Sequence record: OR067834.1
From: Escherichia phage KKP 3715
DNA: 64,000 nucleotides
Reading direction: 5' to 3' (one strand)
The notes below the pieces were generated by a model. The model made no database searches, was not told the DNA's origin, and saw nothing but the letters and a program-made list of their open reading frames with translations. The translations under genes and the position numbers were made by a program. Positions 8,902-47,576 of the stretch are shown here, in pieces. Position 1 is the stretch's first letter; every line of letters starts with the position of its first letter.

Positions 8902-10104
8902 ATGTTAAACTATAACGCCCCAATTGACGGCCAGAAATCTAGCATTGATGGTGCTGGTTCCGACCAGATGAATACCTATTACTGGCTGAAGAAAGCTATT
9001 ATTCAGTCCCGTAAAGACCAGTACTTCATGCCACTGGCTAACACCATTAACATGCCGAAGAACTACGGTAAAACTGTTAAGGTGTATGAGTACGTTCCAC
9101 TGCTTGATGATAAGAATATTAACGATCAGGGTATTGATGCTAATGGTGCTACCATCGTTAATGGTAACCTGTATGGTTCTTCCCGAGACGTTGGTAACAT
9201 CACTTCTAAACTGCCTCTGCTGACAGAGAACGGTGGTCGTGTTAACCGTGTAGGCTTTACTCGTCTGTCTCGTGAAGGTTCCATCCATAAGTTCGGTTTC
9301 TTCTACGAATTTACTCAAGAGTCTCTGGACTTTGATTCTGATGACCAACTGAAAGAACACCTGTCTCGTGAACTGATGAACGGTGCTGTACAGTTGACTG
9401 AAGCTGTTCTCCAGAAAGACCTGTTGGCTGCTGCCGGTACTGTACTGTATGCAGGTGCTGCTACTTCTGATGCTACCATCACTGGTGAAGGTTCTACCCC
9501 GTCCGTAGTTTCTTATAAGAACCTGATGCGTCTTGACCAGATTCTTACTGAGAACCGTACTCCGACCCAGACTACTATCATCACTGGTTCTAAACTCACT
9601 GACACCAAAGTACTTGGTGGTACTCGTGTAATGTACGTTGGTTCTGAACTGGTTCCTGAGCTGAAAGCGATGAAAGACCTGTTCGGTAACAAAGCATTCA
9701 TCGAGGTTCAGCACTATGCTGATGCTGGTACTCTGATGAATGGTGAGATTGGTTGTATCGACAAGTTCCGTATTATCCAGGTTCCTGAGATGCTGCATTG
9801 GGCAGGTGCTGGTGCTCAGGTTACTACTAACCCAGGTTATCGTTCTTCTATGGTTAGTGGTCAGGAACACTACGACGTATTCCCGATGCTGGTAGTTGGT
9901 GATGACTCCTTCTCTACCATTGGCTTCCAGACTGATGGTAAGTCTGTTAAGTTCTCCATCATGACTAAGATGCCTGGTCGAGAAACTGCTGACCGTAATG
10001 ACCCGTATGGTGAGACTGGTTTCAGTTCCATCAAGTGGTACTACGGTATCCTGGTTAAACGTCCAGAACGTCTGGCTCTGATTAAGACTGTTGCTCCTCT
10101 GTAA
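8902..10104 (+). CDS. major capsid protein
   Basis: 400 aa (N4 major coat protein is about 400 aa as recalled); strong AGGA RBS; highly biased codon usage producing a long spurious antisense ORF; followed by hairpins/terminator. Confidence 0.65.
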
Positions 10105-10171
10105 TAGTCCTAAATAAAACAAGGGGGACTTATGTCCCCCTCTTAATAAAACTAGTTGAACCACAGGAAAT

Positions 10172-10813
10172 ATGAACATGAGCATTAACGATAAACCGAC
10201 CACTGACGTAGAACTGGACGTACAGGGCAACGAAGATACCGTTAACGATATTGCAATGCCTAGCGAACTTGAAGTTCTTAAGCAACGTGCAACGTTGATG
10301 AATATTAAGTTCTCTAACAACATCTCCGTTGAGAAGCTCCGTGAGAAGATTGAAGCTGCACAAGCAAAAGATGAACCAGAAGTAAAAGAATCAGCAGTTA
10401 ATCCTTTGGGTGAAAAACAGGAAGCTGGTGTTAAGAAAATGACCCTGGGTCAGAAGATTCGTGCAGAACAGACTCGACTGATTCGTGTACGTATCCAGAA
10501 CCTAGACCCTAAGAAGAAAGACCTGCCGGGTGAGATTATCACCGTAGCTAACGAATATATGGGTACTGTACGTAAGTTTGTTCCATTCGGTGAAGTCACC
10601 GACAATGGTTATCATATTCCGTACTGTATCTATGAGTTCCTTAAAGAGCGTAAGTTCATCAACATTACGACTCGTAAAGGTAAGAATGGCTTACCGGATA
10701 TCCGTGCAACAGAGGCACGTGAGTTCTCCATTGAAGTATTGCCTCCGCTGACTGAAGCAGAATTGACTCAACTGGCTCAAGCACAGATTGCTGCTGGTAG
10801 CCTGAACGATTAA
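10172..10813 (+). CDS. hypothetical virion-module protein
   Basis: 213 aa; AGGAAA RBS; followed by an intrinsic terminator. Confidence 0.45.
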   Translation: MNMSINDKPTTDVELDVQGNEDTVNDIAMPSELEVLKQRATLMNIKFSNNISVEKLREKIEAAQAKDEPEVKESAVNPLGEKQEAGVKKMTLGQKIRAEQTRLIRVRIQNLDPKKKDLPGEIITVANEYMGTVRKFVPFGEVTDNGYHIPYCIYEFLKERKFINITTRKGKNGLPDIRATEAREFSIEVLPPLTEAELTQLAQAQIAAGSLND

Positions 10814-28319: not shown

Positions 28320-28551
28320 AGTGACTTTAACGCAGTCAACGAGGCAGGCCGTCAAACTACTATCACTACAGGGTTAAGCGACCATGGGTTGATAGCCCGA
28401 TAGTAGTAAGACGTAGGTTTGGATTTCTAAGTGTTACCTTCACTAGCGAAATTCCCGTCGAGGGGAATAACAATACATTAGCAGCCACTGGACTGTCTTA
28501 CCAGTGTTGTCTTTAGAGTGCTGTGCAATCAGGACTATGTTACTGCTGAAT

Positions 28552-28628
28552 GGGTGTCCACTACTGGATTTGAACCAGTGACCTTCTGATTATTAGTCAG
28601 TTGCTTTCCCAGTCTAAGCTAAGTGGAC
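28552..28628 (-). tRNA. tRNA gene, isotype undetermined (anticodon loop reads CUAAUAA)
   Basis: Hand-folded on the - strand: 7-bp acceptor stem GTCCACT/AGTGGAC, D-stem GCTT/AAGC, perfect T-arm ACTGG-TTCAAAT-CCAGT, discriminator A, then CCCA. Anticodon stem has 4 bp plus an A-A mismatch. Confidence 0.5.
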
Positions 28629-28637
28629 ATAATATGA

Positions 28638-28710
28638 TTACCCGGGCAGGAATCGAACCTGCGTCCTAGTTAGTTTACTAGTGGGGCTTTACCACTAAGC
28701 CTACCGGGTA
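28638..28710 (-). tRNA. tRNA gene, isotype undetermined (anticodon loop of 6 or 8 nt, not 7)
   Basis: Hand-folded: 7-bp acceptor stem TACCCGG/CCGGGTA, D-stem GGCT/AGCC, T-arm GCAGG-TTCGATT-CCTGC at canonical positions 49-65, no encoded CCA; lies 9 nt from the previous tRNA. Confidence 0.45.
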
Positions 28711-41991: not shown

Positions 41992-42450
41992 TTAGATGTA
42001 AGGGGTTAAATCTGGGGGAGTGTAGTCTTTCCCCTTCATGACTTTCTTGTTCTCGTTGAAGATAGGTTCCCCATCTTCGAACTTGGAATAGTTTGAGCGA
42101 TTGACTTCAGCCAATGCTCCGGGGACATTCATCCCAAGGAAAGTACCGACGCCAGTTGCTGTAACAATCTGGTCAGCAATGCTGTCCAAAAGTCCGATAC
42201 GGTCTTTCGCAACAATACCACCGTTTTGTTTAATACGGTCTGCTACGTAGTTAATAGCATCATGTAAGGAAGCAAGTATTTTAGCGTCATCTTTATTGAC
42301 ACTACTAATTGTCTCCAGCATTTCAGCTACTTCTTCCAGATGGCATCCAACTTGTGTACTGATGTTTTTACTCGTCGGATTCGGTACGGCTTTTAGAAAC
42401 CATTGCCGTGTGCTTTCCAGCGTACAAACGGATGAACTTGTCATGCTCAC
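41992..42450 (-). CDS. MazG-like nucleotide pyrophosphohydrolase (tentative)
   Basis: 152 aa; CHLEEVAEMLE and LLDSIADQIVTATGVG resemble the MazG/HisE helical core, with a C-terminal NRSNYSKF...KGKDYTPPDL tail. Overlaps the upstream HTH gene by about 80 nt. Confidence 0.35.
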   Translation of the reverse strand: MSMTSSSVCTLESTRQWFLKAVPNPTSKNISTQVGCHLEEVAEMLETISSVNKDDAKILASLHDAINYVADRIKQNGGIVAKDRIGLLDSIADQIVTATGVGTFLGMNVPGALAEVNRSNYSKFEDGEPIFNENKKVMKGKDYTPPDLTPYI

Positions 42451-42763
42451 TCTCTTGGTTAAGGTGGCGATTATTATATGCCTCCAGAATCAAGTCCCTT
42501 ACGTATGAACGAATCTCATAAGCAGGACCAACTTGCTCTGATAGCCAATCTGCCACATGGGTTGGTAATGGACGGAGTACATTCTCCATGAACGTCCGAC
42601 GTGTATCGGCTGGTTCAATGTTTAAAGAACGCAATCGCAAAGTAACCGTAGTGGGGTGAACCCCCAACGTCTTAGCGATAGTTGCGAGGGACAGACCAAC
42701 AGCATTCATACGAATGATGTCTTCATCAGTTGCTTTGCGATTAACTCTGTAAACTTTACTCAT
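42368..42763 (-). CDS. helix-turn-helix DNA-binding protein
   Basis: Start moved to the ATG at 42763 with GAGGAAA RBS (track start is a GTG inside a palindrome); HTH-like GLSLATIAKTLGVHPTTV. Confidence 0.45.
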   Translation of the reverse strand: MSKVYRVNRKATDEDIIRMNAVGLSLATIAKTLGVHPTTVTLRLRSLNIEPADTRRTFMENVLRPLPTHVADWLSEQVGPAYEIRSYVRDLILEAYNNRHLNQESEHDKFIRLYAGKHTAMVSKSRTESDE

Positions 42764-42785
42764 AGTACATTTCCTCTTCAAATTT

Positions 42786-42811
42786 ACCCTCACTTTATTA
42801 TAAGTGAGGGT
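42786..42811. promoter_or_regulatory. perfect 10-bp inverted repeat between rIIB-like and HTH genes (operator or RNA hairpin)
   Basis: accctcactt-tattat-aagtgagggt, about 23 nt upstream of the HTH gene start; no U-tract on either side. Confidence 0.3.
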
Positions 42812-42825
42812 ATTTGAACAGGCTA

Positions 42826-44874
42826 TTACTTAACGGCTTTGACCAGTTTGGTAGCTAACTTAGCTTCTTCTTCAGTCAGGCCCATTGCAGTGAATGACTT
42901 CTTAGCATGACGCTTATAGTCTTGCAGAGCATGACCTTTCTGATAGTCGGAGTAGGACGTATCATTCAGGATGCTACGCAGGTTATCGGCGTGTGTTCCA
43001 TTAATTGGTTTAGGGGCAGCTTTAGTAACCTTAGCTTTCTTCACTGGTTTTGGTTTGCCGATAGGTTTAGCTGTGTAAGTTGTACGTACATCAGCAATCT
43101 TAGCCACCACATCGGAACCAACACCTAAAGCAGCCCATGGCTTACGAGCCTTACCTCGCATTTCCACAAGTAAGTCAGCAGCAGCTAATTTATCTTCCGG
43201 AGTAGTAGCGTTAAGGAACTCTTTAATTAGTTCCTGGATTTGTTCTTTCACGGTAGGAGCCTTATTAACAATAGGTTTAAGGTCAGTAGCCTTCACTGGT
43301 TCAGCAGCTACAGCTTCATTCAGTGACTCTTCCATATTCAGTGCTTCTTTATTAGCAACTGTACGGAACTGTTCTACAGAACCAGACGAGAGATTAGTGT
43401 ATTTGAGGTTAGTACCACGATGCCCACCAACCATAACAAGTGTGGTAGGTGAACTATGGTTCCCAACGATGGCATCATTAAGTAATTTCTTACCTACTTC
43501 TGTCTTAGACAGATAGATGCCATTGTTAACGTTGCAACGTTCCTCTTCTGGTAGTTCAGCAATAATGTGATACGCAGCTACACGCATCTTATTAGTGTTG
43601 TACTCAGGAACAGCAAATACATCTTCTGGTGCTACTTTACCAAGGATAGTTACGTTACCACCGAAGGTACGGATGTAACTCATGGATGCTACGTGCAGAC
43701 CATTAGAGCAGTCCTGACGACGGTCAGGGTCTACCAGGTCTTCTCGTACCTGTACTTTACAGCCTACCCACTGACGGATGTTGCCTGAGTGACAGTCAAC
43801 AAATACACGTTTACCATTTTCTTCACCTCTGAACTTAAGGCGTTTCAGGAACAGGATAGAACCATCATCAGCGATAGGCAGTTCAGCAGTTTCCATGAAC
43901 TTCATCAGGTCTTCCACTGAGTGCAGACGGTCTTTAATAACCGGAGCCAGACGCTCAAGGAACTTGGTAAAGCCCTTATAGTCTTTTAGCTGGGCAGACT
44001 GACGTAGGTGACGTTGTAGGTTCTCAATTCCAGGGATAACCCCATTGTTGGTAACAGCAACAACCACTTCATCCTCCTTCACATCAGTGTGGAAGTTAGC
44101 ATCATCGGTACTGATAGCACCTAATGCAGCCAGCTTCTCTGAAGCAGCAGCCAGCTTATCCTGGTTCGTAGTTTTAACCACTTCCACATAAGGCAGTGGT
44201 GTTACCCCACTCCCACGGTTGGTAAATACAACATGTACACCCTTGATGTTCTGAGCTTGTTTAGTAAACTCCCCCATTTCATCATCAGATACTGCACGAA
44301 TTGCAATAGGCCATTCCTGTCTAAGTACGATGTCGGTGAGGTCAGTACTCATCCATAGTACGTCGTTAATAAAACGAACCAGTGCAGGATGGTTATGGTC
44401 TTTATCCCAGCCAGTAACCCACATCAGATTGTCACGTTTGTCGTAGTAACCATCTGCTACTGTTACCTCTGGTTCATTAGCCTGAACAGCCAAGAAGGTA
44501 TCCATAGCTTTGGATACTAATGTCTTAGTAGGATTACCCAGCTTAATATCTGAAACAATACGGACTGGTGAAACACCTGTACCATCCTCGAAGAACTCTT
44601 TAAGTTTAGCCTTAGCTACCTTGAAGAAACGGACGAATCCGTTGGTGTTCTTCTCTGCTTCTAGGTATTCAGTACGCAGTTCTACTTCTGGTGCAATGTT
44701 TACTTCTATTTGGTCTTGGGTAGTACCAAGACCTTTGGTCTGTGCTTCAGATACAATACGAGCAACCCGTGGGTCGCTCTGAGGATATACAACCGTGGAG
44801 CCATCAGGCTTCCACAGTGTGAGGTTTCGACTGTCAACTGCCAGTGCGATGATAGAAATCAATTCGATTTTCAT
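42826..44874 (-). CDS. rIIB-like protein (tentative, by pairing with the rIIA-like gene)
   Basis: 682 aa directly downstream of the rIIA-like gene; Lys/Pro/Ala-rich C-terminal tail; no diagnostic motif recognised. Confidence 0.3.
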   Translation of the reverse strand: MKIELISIIALAVDSRNLTLWKPDGSTVVYPQSDPRVARIVSEAQTKGLGTTQDQIEVNIAPEVELRTEYLEAEKNTNGFVRFFKVAKAKLKEFFEDGTGVSPVRIVSDIKLGNPTKTLVSKAMDTFLAVQANEPEVTVADGYYDKRDNLMWVTGWDKDHNHPALVRFINDVLWMSTDLTDIVLRQEWPIAIRAVSDDEMGEFTKQAQNIKGVHVVFTNRGSGVTPLPYVEVVKTTNQDKLAAASEKLAALGAISTDDANFHTDVKEDEVVVAVTNNGVIPGIENLQRHLRQSAQLKDYKGFTKFLERLAPVIKDRLHSVEDLMKFMETAELPIADDGSILFLKRLKFRGEENGKRVFVDCHSGNIRQWVGCKVQVREDLVDPDRRQDCSNGLHVASMSYIRTFGGNVTILGKVAPEDVFAVPEYNTNKMRVAAYHIIAELPEEERCNVNNGIYLSKTEVGKKLLNDAIVGNHSSPTTLVMVGGHRGTNLKYTNLSSGSVEQFRTVANKEALNMEESLNEAVAAEPVKATDLKPIVNKAPTVKEQIQELIKEFLNATTPEDKLAAADLLVEMRGKARKPWAALGVGSDVVAKIADVRTTYTAKPIGKPKPVKKAKVTKAAPKPINGTHADNLRSILNDTSYSDYQKGHALQDYKRHAKKSFTAMGLTEEEAKLATKLVKAVK

Positions 44875-44878
44875 CAGA

Positions 44879-47443
44879 TTATTTACCTTTCAGTTTATTT
44901 AGACGATTACGGTAGAGGGACTTAAACCCAGGAATATCCTCTGGATTCTTCTTGAGATGTTTAACTAAATTACCCAAGTCCAGGCTCTGTAGGATGTCAC
45001 CAGCACTCCAGCTATAACAGAATAGTTCTTTGTACTTTTTAAGTACTTCGTAATGCTTATGCATACGAGGATTAACCATGCATTTATACGGCTCTAGGTC
45101 ATACATCGACTTAATGAGGCCCATTTCAATGAGTCTATCCTTGCTACTTGATTGGTTTCTTAAGAAGACGCATGCCCATTCATACTCTGGTTTAAAAACC
45201 AGACTCTGCAATGGTTTGAATGTCAGACCCAGAATATCGAGGATTTCCCAATATTCTCTGTCATCCAGTCCTACGTATTCCAGAACACCGATACGCTGTT
45301 CAGTGGCATACTTCTTGAATCCCTTACTGGTAATAACAGACATCAATTCATTAAGACGAATATCGTCAATGTGAATAGCACCACGACGTTTGGCTTTGTT
45401 AACTTCGATTTGATTACGACAGACAACAGTCTCTGCTTTCATCTCATCAGACAACTCCCACCATTTCCACATGGTTCCAATCTTGGCAGTTTCTGGTCTA
45501 TCAGAACCAACCTGATTGGCTGGTACGTAGTACTTAGGCAATTCTACTTCAACGAATCTAGGTTCCTCATGGAATCTCGGGTCAGCAAAATCCTTGTCAA
45601 TGTGTGGTTTAGATACCAAATCTCCATTTTTATCTCGTACAGGGGTAGTACCAAGTACTGCATTCAATGAAACCAGTGCATTAGTTTTACCACCTGCTTT
45701 GGTTTTATTGGCAGCTATTGTCTTAGCACGTTTCTCAGCAGCTATCTTAGCCTGTTCTCTGCGGAAGTTAGTTGGTTTGTCCCACTCATTATATTGAGTA
45801 AGGTCAATAACCCGATAACCCATAGCAGTGAACTTAGCTACAGCTTCTGCCGCTTCCCCTTTCTTAGGACCAACGACGTGAACAAAAGCAGTACGCTCCA
45901 GGTCACCTCGGTTGTACTCAGGGAAGTATGAGAAAGAGTCTGCACAGTCAGATAAACGTCTTGTAACTACAACGTTCTTGGTAGTGAAAATACCAATACC
46001 CAAATGGTTGTTATAGCCCATCTTAAAGTAGTCAGTAAGTTTACCTTTCACCAAGTCAACACGGTTACCCCGGTTCATTATGTAACCAGACCACTTAGCA
46101 CCAGTAGCTTTTAAAGCAGCAAGCTGAGGTAGGTGCAGATGACGGTATACTAAATCCTGGAATGAGTAACTATTATCACCTACACGAGTATTCTTAAGAG
46201 CACGCATAGCCTTACTATACAGTTTCTTAAGACCTGCATACTCAGGACGAGCTAACAATGCCTTATTGGATAGATTACGCCAGTGCTTAATATGATGTTT
46301 ACGTTGCTTAGCCCACAAGCTAGAGGACATATAGCGTTGAACAGTTCTGTCTGTAACAGCACCCAGGAAAGATGGGTATTCCCAGTAACGAGTAGAAGAT
46401 TCAGAGGCATATTCTTCAATCTGCTTAATAGCTTCAGGAATCTTAGCCTTAATCTCTTTCTCCATACGGTCTACTAAATCTACGCATAGAGTAGTAATAC
46501 CATCGTCAGTTAACTTCTGGTTAGACAGTGTTTCGCGACTAGGGGCAATAGCTAAGGTATCTGGTGCAGCCTGAACTACTAGAGTGTCAGCACCAATGAT
46601 ATTCATGAAGTTGAGGATAAGACCCACAGCCTCTTCACTAGCAGGACTAGATACTATTGGGTACATTACGTTACCGTAGCGAACAAAGATGTTACTGTTA
46701 CCCATATAGCCTTGATACCAGCTATCAGACATATCATATGAACCAGGTTCAAATGACATACCTAGGGTATTCAGTAGAGTGAAGTCACCCTGCTGAATAC
46801 TATTGCCTGTTTCTTCACGAATTAATTTGGGAATACTAAGCTCAGCCTTAATTTCACCGTTAAACACAATTGATGTGATGTAGTGTACAAAGGTATTTAC
46901 ATCATGTTTACCTAACTGGAATTTAACTTCCAGTCCAGATTCCTCAGTAGGAATATTGGTAACAATAGGAACAATACCCGGTTTACCATCATTCTCAATC
47001 GCAGCCTTAGCTACGTTATATACCGACATCTTTCCTTGGTTCCATGAAGTAACCTGGAAGCTATCTGTATAGGCGAATGGGGACTTACATCCCAGACCAA
47101 AGCCACCAGTAACACTACTGTTGGACTTCTTAGTAGATGCACCATAGACGCCATAAATGGAACCAATGAGTTCATCCGGGATTCCGTTACCAAAGTCACG
47201 GAAGGTAATAAAGTTGTCGGTATCAATAGTAATACGGATAGGAGTATCAGTCTTACCTGCTTCAATATGAGCATCCCAACTGTTACAGATAGTCTCACGG
47301 ACTACTGCTAGAGTAGGGTTGTTATACAAGGAAGTACTTAATACGTGAAAGAATGCCGGGTCATCAGAGATGCCAAAGGCGATTGCTTCTTTGCCACCCA
47401 GTGTCGCTGAAGTAGCTGATTGATTGGTATCTGCAACTAACAT
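44879..47443 (-). CDS. rIIA: rIIA-like protein with N-terminal GHKL (histidine-kinase-like) ATPase domain
   Basis: 854 aa; N-box-like RETICNSWDAH, G1-like RDFGNGI, G2-like GGFGLGCKS near the N-terminus; GGAGAG RBS. Confidence 0.55.
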   Translation of the reverse strand: MLVADTNQSATSATLGGKEAIAFGISDDPAFFHVLSTSLYNNPTLAVVRETICNSWDAHIEAGKTDTPIRITIDTDNFITFRDFGNGIPDELIGSIYGVYGASTKKSNSSVTGGFGLGCKSPFAYTDSFQVTSWNQGKMSVYNVAKAAIENDGKPGIVPIVTNIPTEESGLEVKFQLGKHDVNTFVHYITSIVFNGEIKAELSIPKLIREETGNSIQQGDFTLLNTLGMSFEPGSYDMSDSWYQGYMGNSNIFVRYGNVMYPIVSSPASEEAVGLILNFMNIIGADTLVVQAAPDTLAIAPSRETLSNQKLTDDGITTLCVDLVDRMEKEIKAKIPEAIKQIEEYASESSTRYWEYPSFLGAVTDRTVQRYMSSSLWAKQRKHHIKHWRNLSNKALLARPEYAGLKKLYSKAMRALKNTRVGDNSYSFQDLVYRHLHLPQLAALKATGAKWSGYIMNRGNRVDLVKGKLTDYFKMGYNNHLGIGIFTTKNVVVTRRLSDCADSFSYFPEYNRGDLERTAFVHVVGPKKGEAAEAVAKFTAMGYRVIDLTQYNEWDKPTNFRREQAKIAAEKRAKTIAANKTKAGGKTNALVSLNAVLGTTPVRDKNGDLVSKPHIDKDFADPRFHEEPRFVEVELPKYYVPANQVGSDRPETAKIGTMWKWWELSDEMKAETVVCRNQIEVNKAKRRGAIHIDDIRLNELMSVITSKGFKKYATEQRIGVLEYVGLDDREYWEILDILGLTFKPLQSLVFKPEYEWACVFLRNQSSSKDRLIEMGLIKSMYDLEPYKCMVNPRMHKHYEVLKKYKELFCYSWSAGDILQSLDLGNLVKHLKKNPEDIPGFKSLYRNRLNKLKGK

Positions 47444-47576
47444 TTATTTACTCTCCAGTTTAAATGTTGCTTATAGGAAAAGACTGAACACAACTACGGA
47501 AATACCTATGGCTGTTCCGTATGTACCCAATAGCTCGTTAAGTATGTAGGGTAGAGCCATGAAATAGTTGAATACT

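Follow-up and report, generated by a model that had tools for sequence, protein, structure and literature searches.

A probable counter-defence rIIA–rIIB module in the N4-related coliphage KKP 3715, with predicted affinities to Hsp90 and to the ribosomal bL12 C-terminal domain

The rII pair of phage KKP 3715 and its described relatives

Genes rIIA and rIIB of phage T4 are dispensable on ordinary hosts and required when lambda RexAB is present, and in HIDEN-SEQ T4 rII tolerates transposon insertions. RexAB aborts infection through membrane depolarisation (PMC11879866). For phage N4, knock-down of RIIA or RIIB by CRISPRi-ART was neutral without Rex and lowered the plating efficiency with lambda RexAB (Adler 2025, PMC11879866), and the same outcome was obtained for RIIA/RIIB of the phages MM02, EdH4 and SUSP1; all of these proteins, those of N4 included, are less than 40% identical to the T4 pair (PMC11879866). 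In this study, we analysed a pair of genes of this kind in Escherichia phage KKP 3715 (record OR067834.1), within a stretch of 64,000 nt that is called the window below. The locus is very probably the rIIA–rIIB module of a G7C-like coliphage, orthologous to gp33/gp34 of N4 and homologous to T4 rIIA/rIIB, with a counter-defence role; this reading rests on sequence comparison and on analogy with the N4 and T4 phenotypes. The clamp mechanism that we propose for the two products is much less certain.

Both open reading frames (ORFs) lie exactly where the initial annotation had placed them (Table 1), each with an ATG start, and encode a protein of 854 aa (96 kDa, pI 8.8) and a partner of 682 aa (75.5 kDa); only 4 nt separate the TAA stop of rIIA (44881-44879) from the rIIB ATG (44874). 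The 854-aa protein is 28% identical to T4 rIIA over 349 aa (BLASTP, E=7e-27; aa 17-351). It matches the PHROG RIIA family phrog_2979 over the full length (E=6e-292) and, over aa 10-393, also phrog_612, the family of the T4 type (E=3e-68), and T4 rIIA in return matches phrog_2979 (E=2.7e-52). The similarity to T4 rIIA reaches past the ATPase domain into a second domain that bears a PSRE motif. The 682-aa partner had been named rIIB-like by position only. The name holds and the restriction falls, since the protein is 27% identical to T4 rIIB over 219 aa (BLASTP, E=3e-18; aa 229-444) and matches the PHROG RIIB family phrog_2886 (E=1e-214), with T4 rIIB matching the N4-type rIIB family in return, so that the assignment is one of homology in both directions. 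Profile searches, in which a lack of any rII similarity would have counted against the annotation, thus connected both proteins with rII families. N4 gp33 and gp34 are 40% and 47% identical to the two proteins, respectively, and collinear with them over the full length.

Megablast with the 4.6-kb locus matched 56 phage records, 55 of which cover at least 80% of the query, and all of them are G7C-like, N4-related podoviruses of the genus Gamaleyavirus; the best DNA matches were PhAPEC5 (92.9%), Bas96 (92.5%) and G7C (92.1%). The window also encodes an ORF of 3,456 aa for the virion RNA polymerase that is typical for N4-like phages, and its phage is a Gamaleyavirus. The G7C record names the corresponding genes gp33 'rIIA-like protein' and gp34 'rIIB-like protein'. 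In the window as in G7C, thymidylate synthase is the upstream neighbour, and the downstream genes are gp35 and gp36, then a Dda-like helicase, gp38 and DNA polymerase; the gene arrangement around the N4 pair is the same. Genes, order, neighbours and lengths (854 aa; 681-683 aa) are shared by G7C, PhAPEC5, Bas96 and EC1-UPM, in which the DNA of the locus is 88-93% identical, and the rII proteins of PhAPEC5 are about 93-96% identical to those of the window. The Gamaleyavirus orthologues differ at the strain level only. Two of three protein-database searches gave almost solely Gamaleyavirus proteins of more than 85% identity and no added diversity.

N4 belongs to another genus, and its gp33/gp34 have the same domain layout, including a diverged bL12-like insertion, the same context and the same hairpin after rIIB; the anti-Rex phenotype is one shown in N4. 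T4 shares with the window the GHKL and second domains of rIIA, identical catalytic motifs, the PSRE motif, the rIIB core with its CSxGLH motif and the order of rIIA followed by rIIB. In contrast, the C-terminal half of T4 rIIA is unrelated, and T4 rIIB has 312 aa with an N-terminal helix-turn-helix (HTH), whereas the 682-aa rIIB of the window lacks an HTH, begins with another domain, contains a bL12-like insertion and is extended at the C-terminus by a basic helical part.

The pair is widespread. Among 50,697 phage records searched by tblastn, rIIA-like sequences were found in 2,557 and rIIB-like sequences in 2,540, and 5,836 protein clusters at 50% identity were rIIB-like at E<=1e-3. In all 11 other lineages that were opened (N4, Litunavirus, Mukerjeevirus, a roseophage, Pourcelvirus, Littlefixvirus, Klebsiella JZBo1, FelixO1-like, rV5-like, a Streptomyces phage and crAss-like), rIIA lies directly upstream of rIIB. 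In phage RB43, RIIA and RIIB are naturally fused into a single chain (BFVD Q56C47, 1,049 aa), and the family phrog_609 (1,055 columns), which is labelled RIIB, covers the rIIA N-terminus and the rIIB core. The fixed adjacency, together with the natural fusion, suggests that rIIA and rIIB work as one physical unit.

Some observations on relatives are recorded here in their own right. The crAss-like phage cr116_1 (L011 4402-7608) has a split rIIA, in which an intron-encoded endonuclease gene stands between an N-terminal piece of 125 aa and a piece of 565 aa, and rIIB comes next. The labels in public records are inconsistent: for rIIB they read 'ribosomal L7/L12 C-terminal domain protein' or else 'hypothetical protein', and for rIIA 'ATP-dependent molecular chaperone' (as in the GenBank record of Erwinia phage Ea9-2), 'HSP90-like ATPase family protein', 'TOP6B' (CU10EC) or 'alpha-galactosidase' (Littlefix). 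Examples of such labelling are Ea9-2 (KF806588, 24792-26963) and phiA41 (KY769270, 32696-34801).

The rIIA ATPase domain and its affinity to Hsp90

The claim of a GHKL ATPase fold in rIIA, which had been read from the N-box, G1 and G2 motifs, was borne out. Each of the three patterns occurs once only in the protein (Table 1), and the Pfam model HATPase_c_3, whose curated cut-off is 25 bits, matches aa 47-157 with 37.4 bits (E=3.2e-9). When nine very divergent rIIA proteins (18-42% identity) were aligned, 22 positions were invariant, among them the motif residues E50, N54, D57, D83, G85, G87, G113, G116 and G118 and also K105, K120, G257, Y261, R303 and E304. The same residues are invariant in 108 N4-type rIIA proteins, save E304, which is nearly so. 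The score above the curated cut-off and the invariance of the residues argue that the motifs are not a chance pattern. A PADLOC scan against defence-system proteins gave one weak GHKL match and nothing else.

rIIA is well conserved at aa 1-200 and again at aa 281-320, and poorly from aa 321 on, which fits the published description of an N-terminal GHKL ATPase followed by a C-terminal domain that is highly variable (PMC7824862). The AlphaFold2 model, built from 108 sequences, has a mean predicted local distance difference test score (pLDDT) of 75.6 and mostly exceeds 85 for aa 20-350. A Foldseek search of this model against the PDB returned 448 matches at E<=1e-3, and the top 44 were all proteins of the Hsp90 family (HtpG, Hsc82, TRAP1, GRP94 and Hsp90-beta; E from about 1e-11 to 3e-9), with full-length Hsp90 proteins first and roughly 600 or more aligned columns. 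The 43-kDa fragment of GyrB came after the Hsp90 proteins (E=3e-9). The same order was obtained with profiles: hhalign placed the rIIA profile on Escherichia coli HtpG with a probability of 96.7% (E=3.2e-10, 254 columns), on GyrB with E=1.8e-6 (125 columns) and on MutL with E=2e-5 (49 columns). The HtpG alignment pairs E50, N54, D57 and D83 of rIIA with E34, N38, D41 and D80 of HtpG. By predicted fold and by profile, therefore, rIIA is nearest to the Hsp90 branch of the GHKL ATPases.

The second domain of rIIA may be a counterpart of the catalytic loop in the Hsp90 middle domain. The HtpG loop NVSREILQ bears the catalytic arginine R336, and two independent rIIA profiles gave as best local alignment of this region 'APSRE(T)LS' on HtpG 'NVSREILQ'. 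Two results weigh against taking the Hsp90 affinity further. The PSRE match to the catalytic loop is weak (E~0.06) and the full-length hhalign alignment pairs PSRE with HtpG 'IPSQAP' instead, so the equivalence is suggestive only. Furthermore, Pfam HSP90 gave no match to rIIA of the window at E<=0.01, and rIIA is therefore not a member of the HSP90 family; the NCBIfam HSP90 model reached 21 bits on T4 rIIA against a cut-off of 455. Hsp90 proteins (HtpG, TRAP1, Hsc82) thus resemble rIIA in the aligned catalytic Glu, Asn and Asp and possibly in an arginine of a common 'SRE' loop, but the C-terminal half is unrelated in sequence and rIIA is not known to act as a chaperone. A profile search of PDB sequences detected no similarity for this half of rIIA, and thus no counterpart of the C-terminal dimerisation domain of Hsp90, and our literature search found no paper tying rIIA to Hsp90.

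The GHKL fold would also suit a topoisomerase, with rIIA as an ATPase subunit of the Topo VI-B or GyrB type and rIIB as the DNA-cleaving partner. Weak matches to Topo VI-B (PDB, E=0.1-0.2; TIGR01052, E=2.7e-5), a match to the PHROG family 'DNA topoisomerase II large subunit' (E=1.4e-6), the GenBank label TOP6B and the Foldseek match to the GyrB fragment given above all point that way. However, these matches are confined to the common Bergerat fold, the TIGR01052 score is 22.8 bits against a cut-off of 380.7, and Hsp90 outscores GyrB by profile as well as by fold. As rIIA fails the family score and rIIB has neither a Toprim nor a winged-helix cleavage domain and no solved relative, we consider this reading effectively refuted and scarcely credible.

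Domain layout of rIIB and its bL12-like insertion

The AlphaFold2 model of rIIB has a mean pLDDT of 87.1. The beta/alpha N-terminal domain is followed by a mostly disordered linker (aa 102-142), a compact beta-alpha-alpha-beta-alpha-beta domain (aa 149-219), the core, a small domain (aa 443-494) and the helical C-terminal region (Table 1). The core, aa ~296-440, is the sole part common to rIIB of ten lineages, in which L323, G338, V374, C389, G392, L393, H394, P416, P423, K429, R431 and Y435 are invariant, and the window protein has the core motifs CSxGLH, PxDV..P and K.R...Y. The core gave no Foldseek match in the PDB at E<=1e-3 and none in a sequence-profile search of PDB sequences; against predicted viral structures, the best matches of the rIIB model were rIIB proteins of many phage groups. 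In the C-terminal region, two helical segments (aa 542-601 and 628-681) each hold one copy of the motif K(K/R)xAKK(S/P)(W/F)xx(L/M)G (aa 571-584 and 652-665), with a Lys/Pro-rich disordered linker between them. Both repeat copies are kept among N4-type rIIB proteins. No Pfam family matches the motif, which has the look of a small repeat that binds nucleic acids or proteins.

The N-terminus bears on a proposal made for jumbo-phage orthologues of T4 rIIB, namely that rIIB is a transcription factor tuning phage gene expression. It is listed as a specific transcription factor in the literature (PMC7824862), and aa 7-50 of T4 rIIB match HTH_7 and HTH_28; FelixO1-type rIIB likewise begins with an HTH. 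In contrast, Pfam found no HTH in the N-terminus of rIIB of the window, other N4-type rIIB proteins also lack it, and the N-terminal domains of the window and T4 proteins are unrelated in alignment, the beta/alpha domain replacing the HTH. Since the only universal part of rIIB is a non-HTH core (aa 296-440), a role of this kind for rIIB is very improbable indeed. The idea that the HTH of T4 rIIB had moved into the downstream gp35-like gene was considered and dropped as unsupported, as there is no pairwise similarity and only sub-threshold generic HTH models match both.

Among PDB structures, a single match recurred for the rIIB model, namely the C-terminal domain of L7/L12, together with the related ClpS fold (Foldseek); by secondary structure, it falls on the domain at aa 149-219. 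Structure 1ctf was superposed with a template modelling (TM) score of 0.83 and a root-mean-square deviation of 1.8 A over 72 columns, 1rqu matched with E=0.03, and phage proteins in BFVD that are annotated with a bL12 C-terminal domain also match the rIIB model (E=8e-4). The window sequence itself gave E=6 against E. coli L7/L12 in BLASTP and no Pfam match even at E<=10, and the signature 'GLKEAKD' is lost in its copy. The segment is occupied in only 10-36% of N4-type rIIB proteins, and a profile of 18 relatives that have it aligned with E. coli L7/L12 (rplL query sequence checked at 100% identity) with an hhalign probability of 97.4% and E=1.1e-11.

Six rIIB relatives match Pfam Ribosomal_L12 (PF00542) above threshold at the same position, with E-values from 1e-14 to 2e-7. 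In these relatives, the bL12 sequence is nearly canonical, and they are full-length rIIB by phrog_2886 (E=4e-195 and 2e-177). One of them is identical to a protein of Pectobacterium phage phiA41, which is called 'ribosomal L7/L12 C-terminal domain protein' in GenBank and 'RIIB lysis inhibitor' in RefSeq, and another is 92.5% identical to a 724-aa protein of Ea9-2. The latter protein was counted with the bL12 domains that viruses encode 'within much larger polypeptides', in a paper that never mentions rII (Mizuno et al. 2019, PMC6375957). The fold match, the sub-family profile and the canonical copies at the same position in relatives agree: rIIB of the window, like that of N4, holds a captured bL12 C-terminal domain in diverged form, which has the fold of the ribosomal one and sits, in the window, inside a 682-aa non-ribosomal protein.

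A ribosome-fraction result for the bL12-domain protein of Salmonella phage FSL SP-076 (PMC6375957) was considered for rIIB and rejected. That protein (AGF88397, 418 aa) is encoded in another genome region, belongs to a different PHROG family and aligns with rIIB at an hhalign probability of 0.4%; it is not rIIB, and therefore the result cannot be transferred. The DNA coding for the bL12-like domain (44150-44500) is 82-90% identical among Gamaleyavirus genomes, compared with 88-93% for the whole rII locus. Phage Pollock, said to 'lack' the bL12 domain, was not among the DNA matches of the window's clade.

Table 1. Coordinates of the rII locus of phage KKP 3715 and of features within and beside it (positions in the window).
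Feature	Position	Strand	Basis or remark
Shine-Dalgarno-like GGAGAG	47451..47456	(-)	7 nt 5' of the rIIA ATG; read from the sequence
rIIA-like gene	44879..47443	(-)	Orthologue of G7C gp33 and N4 gp33
rIIA aa ~20-196, GHKL (Bergerat-fold) ATPase domain	46856..47386	(-)	Pfam, motifs, invariant residues, model, hhalign
N-box ExxxNxxD, rIIA aa 50-57	47273-47296	(-)	Within RETICNSWDAH, aa 49-59
G1 DxGxG, rIIA aa 83-87	47183-47197	(-)	Within RDFGNGI, aa 82-88
G2 GxxGxG, rIIA aa 113-118	47090-47107	(-)	GGFGLG
rIIA aa ~197-320, conserved second domain	46484..46855	(-)	Invariant G257, Y261, R303, E304; conserved with T4 rIIA
PSRE motif, rIIA aa 301-304	46532-46543	(-)	In second domain
rIIA aa 321-854, variable, mainly helical C-terminal half	44882..46483	(-)	
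rIIB-like gene	42826..44874	(-)	Orthologue of G7C gp34 and N4 gp34
rIIB aa 1-96, beta/alpha N-terminal domain	44587..44874	(-)	N4-type rIIB only; alignments and model
rIIB aa ~149-219, diverged bL12 (L7/L12) C-terminal-domain-like insertion	44218..44430	(-)	Fold and family profile
rIIB aa ~296-440, universal core: three helices, then beta-rich domain	43555..43989	(-)	Aligned with T4 rIIB
CSxGLH motif, rIIB aa 389-394	43693-43710	(-)	Invariant motif in core
rIIB aa 542-681, helical C-terminal region	42832..43251	(-)	Model; motif seen twice in family alignment consensus; basic patch
First repeat copy, rIIB aa 571-614	43031-43163	(-)	
Second repeat copy, rIIB aa 652-681	42832-42920	(-)	
RNA hairpin between rIIB and gp35-like gene	42773..42822	(-)	dG -27.8 kcal/mol, z -7.3

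Function of the pair and other features of the window

The suggestion of an anti-exclusion module was supported for this phage indirectly, by orthology, because the N4 genes that counter lambda RexAB are the orthologues of the pair (40% and 47% identical). To the counter-defence reading, the present analysis contributes homology, synteny, conservation of catalytic residues, folds and natural fusions, and the anti-RexAB phenotype comes from the literature on N4 and T4. Two further reports concern rIIB. RIIB of T6, when produced alone, is toxic to E. coli and triggers a CARD-gasdermin defence system, and in a Pseudomonas N4-like phage under host-range evolution, the rIIB-like gene gained five crossovers by recombination, a result interpreted by the authors as selection (PMC6466182).

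Considering these results, we propose a plausible model. rIIA and rIIB would be co-transcribed, probably with coupled translation, within the block of replication genes, and their products would most probably act as one complex. In this complex, rIIA would serve as an ATP-driven 'clamp' of the Hsp90-type GHKL class, to which the second domain may give a catalytic arginine, and rIIB would be its obligate partner through the conserved core that has no solved relative. The conserved ATPase and the rIIB core would form the engine, and the variable C-terminal half of rIIA and the lineage-specific additions to rIIB (bL12-like domain, basic helical repeats) would recognise the target. The complex would thereby stop abortive-infection systems of the Rex type from collapsing the membrane potential and killing the cell.

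Several points weigh against this reading. The literature search found no experiment on rII of this phage or of Gamaleyavirus, the target range of lambda RexAB is narrow and Rex may not be the natural target (PMC8594841), and N4-like phages of hosts without lambda keep the pair as well, in line with a more general role. Knock-down of rIIA in CRISPRi-ART may lower rIIB too, by polarity, which makes a separate need for each of the N4 genes less certain. Neither rIIA nor rIIB has a convincing predicted transmembrane segment, so that their sequences do not point to a direct action at the membrane.

The main rival to a counter-defence role is a housekeeping function, either in replicating the phage DNA or in the infected cell's physiology (organising replication complexes or preserving the energy state, for example), with Rex sensitivity as a side effect. 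The genes lie within the replication module, flanked by thymidylate synthase on one side and by the genes for helicase and DNA polymerase on the other, and the pair is kept in every N4-like lineage examined, from phages of Pseudomonas, Vibrio, roseobacters, Achromobacter, Klebsiella, Erwinia and Pectobacterium. The DNA-binding-type HTH of T4 and FelixO1-type rIIB and the toxicity of RIIB expressed alone in E. coli would also suit such a function. However, knock-down in N4, T4 and three other phages caused no plating defect without Rex (PMC11879866), and T4 rII tolerates transposon insertions; the role would have to be dispensable in the laboratory. We therefore regard this explanation as unlikely.

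Database labels suggest another role. PHROG and RefSeq name the products 'RIIA/RIIB lysis inhibitor', that is, proteins delaying lysis upon superinfection, and T4 rII mutants historically gave rapid-lysis plaques on E. coli B. On non-lysogenic K-12, in contrast, the plaques of rII mutants look like those of the wild type and lysis inhibition is nearly normal (PMC6466182), and the T4 record ascribes the phenotype to 'effects of specific prophage'. The genes of the window stand in the replication block and not beside lysis genes, and the proteins are without a membrane-spanning segment. As the plaque phenotype depends on the host strain, the label is probably a misnomer, and we hold lysis inhibition to be very unlikely as the function of the pair.

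A bolder form of the counter-defence model may be considered as well. In the ribosome, the bL12 C-terminal domain is the docking site that recruits translational GTPases, so part of the rII action could run beyond the membrane. In this form, rIIA, with N and middle domains of the Hsp90 type and R303 as the catalytic-loop arginine, would belong to an ATP-driven, Hsp90-like remodelling machine, rIIB would be an obligate partner of new fold, and the bL12 domain captured by rIIB in N4/G7C-type and related phages could carry part of the rII action through EF-Tu, EF-G or the ribosome. Taken as a whole, this proposal is quite doubtful.

The 62-nt gap 3' of rIIB holds an RNA hairpin with the core stem CCCUCACUU/AAGUGAGGG. 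It is conserved in the window phage, G7C, N4 and Klebsiella phage JZBo1, with 15 of 15 pairs formed and four compensatory pairs, and the G7C record annotates a stem_loop at its position. Its outer stem, at the base of the 3' arm, overlaps with GAGGA, the gp35-like gene's Shine-Dalgarno sequence. The hairpin may be a terminator, a stabiliser of the rII mRNA or a throttle on translation of the gp35-like gene. The latter, an HTH gene at 42368-42793 (-), is called mechanically from GTG 42793 (141 aa) and then begins inside the hairpin. Its true start is probably ATG 42763 (131 aa), as this ATG is preceded by the Shine-Dalgarno sequence AGAGGA and the alignment with phrog_6377 begins at residue 11.

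A scan for sigma-70 promoters gave fewer sites than expected by chance and is uninformative for middle transcription of the N4 type. Homopolymeric 'contingency' tracts, for which the A6 run in T4 rIIA may be compared, were sought, and no run of at least six was present in the rIIA or rIIB gene. Elsewhere in the window, two adjacent tRNA-like genes were found at 28551-28710 (-), one for tRNA-Ile with the unusual anticodon AAT and one reported by ARAGORN as 'tRNA-???' with the two-base anticodon 'ac'. In the block of structural genes, a 472-aa ORF (8905-10323, -) is antisense to a 400-aa ORF (8902-10104, +) with near-complete overlap; it is probably a spurious shadow ORF, though unusually long.

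The rIIA-like/rIIB-like annotation is itself already known, as N4 and G7C-type phages have been annotated in this way for years and the N4 pair has been tested against RexAB. Our small additions are the affinity of rIIA to the Hsp90 branch and the reading of the rIIB insertion in N4 and G7C as a diverged bL12 domain. They concern the whole rII family rather than this window, and offer testable handles on how rII acts, a question that has stood for about seventy years since Benzer. The N4-type genes are a second, very divergent rII pair, in which conservation is confined to the essential parts, namely the catalytic residues of the GHKL domain, PSRE, and the CSxGLH-bearing core of rIIB; these residues could serve as targets for mutagenesis. 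Furthermore, the insertion ties the literature on virus-encoded ribosomal proteins to rIIB, a link absent from Mizuno et al. 2019, and suggests a concrete class of partners for rII, the translational GTPases.

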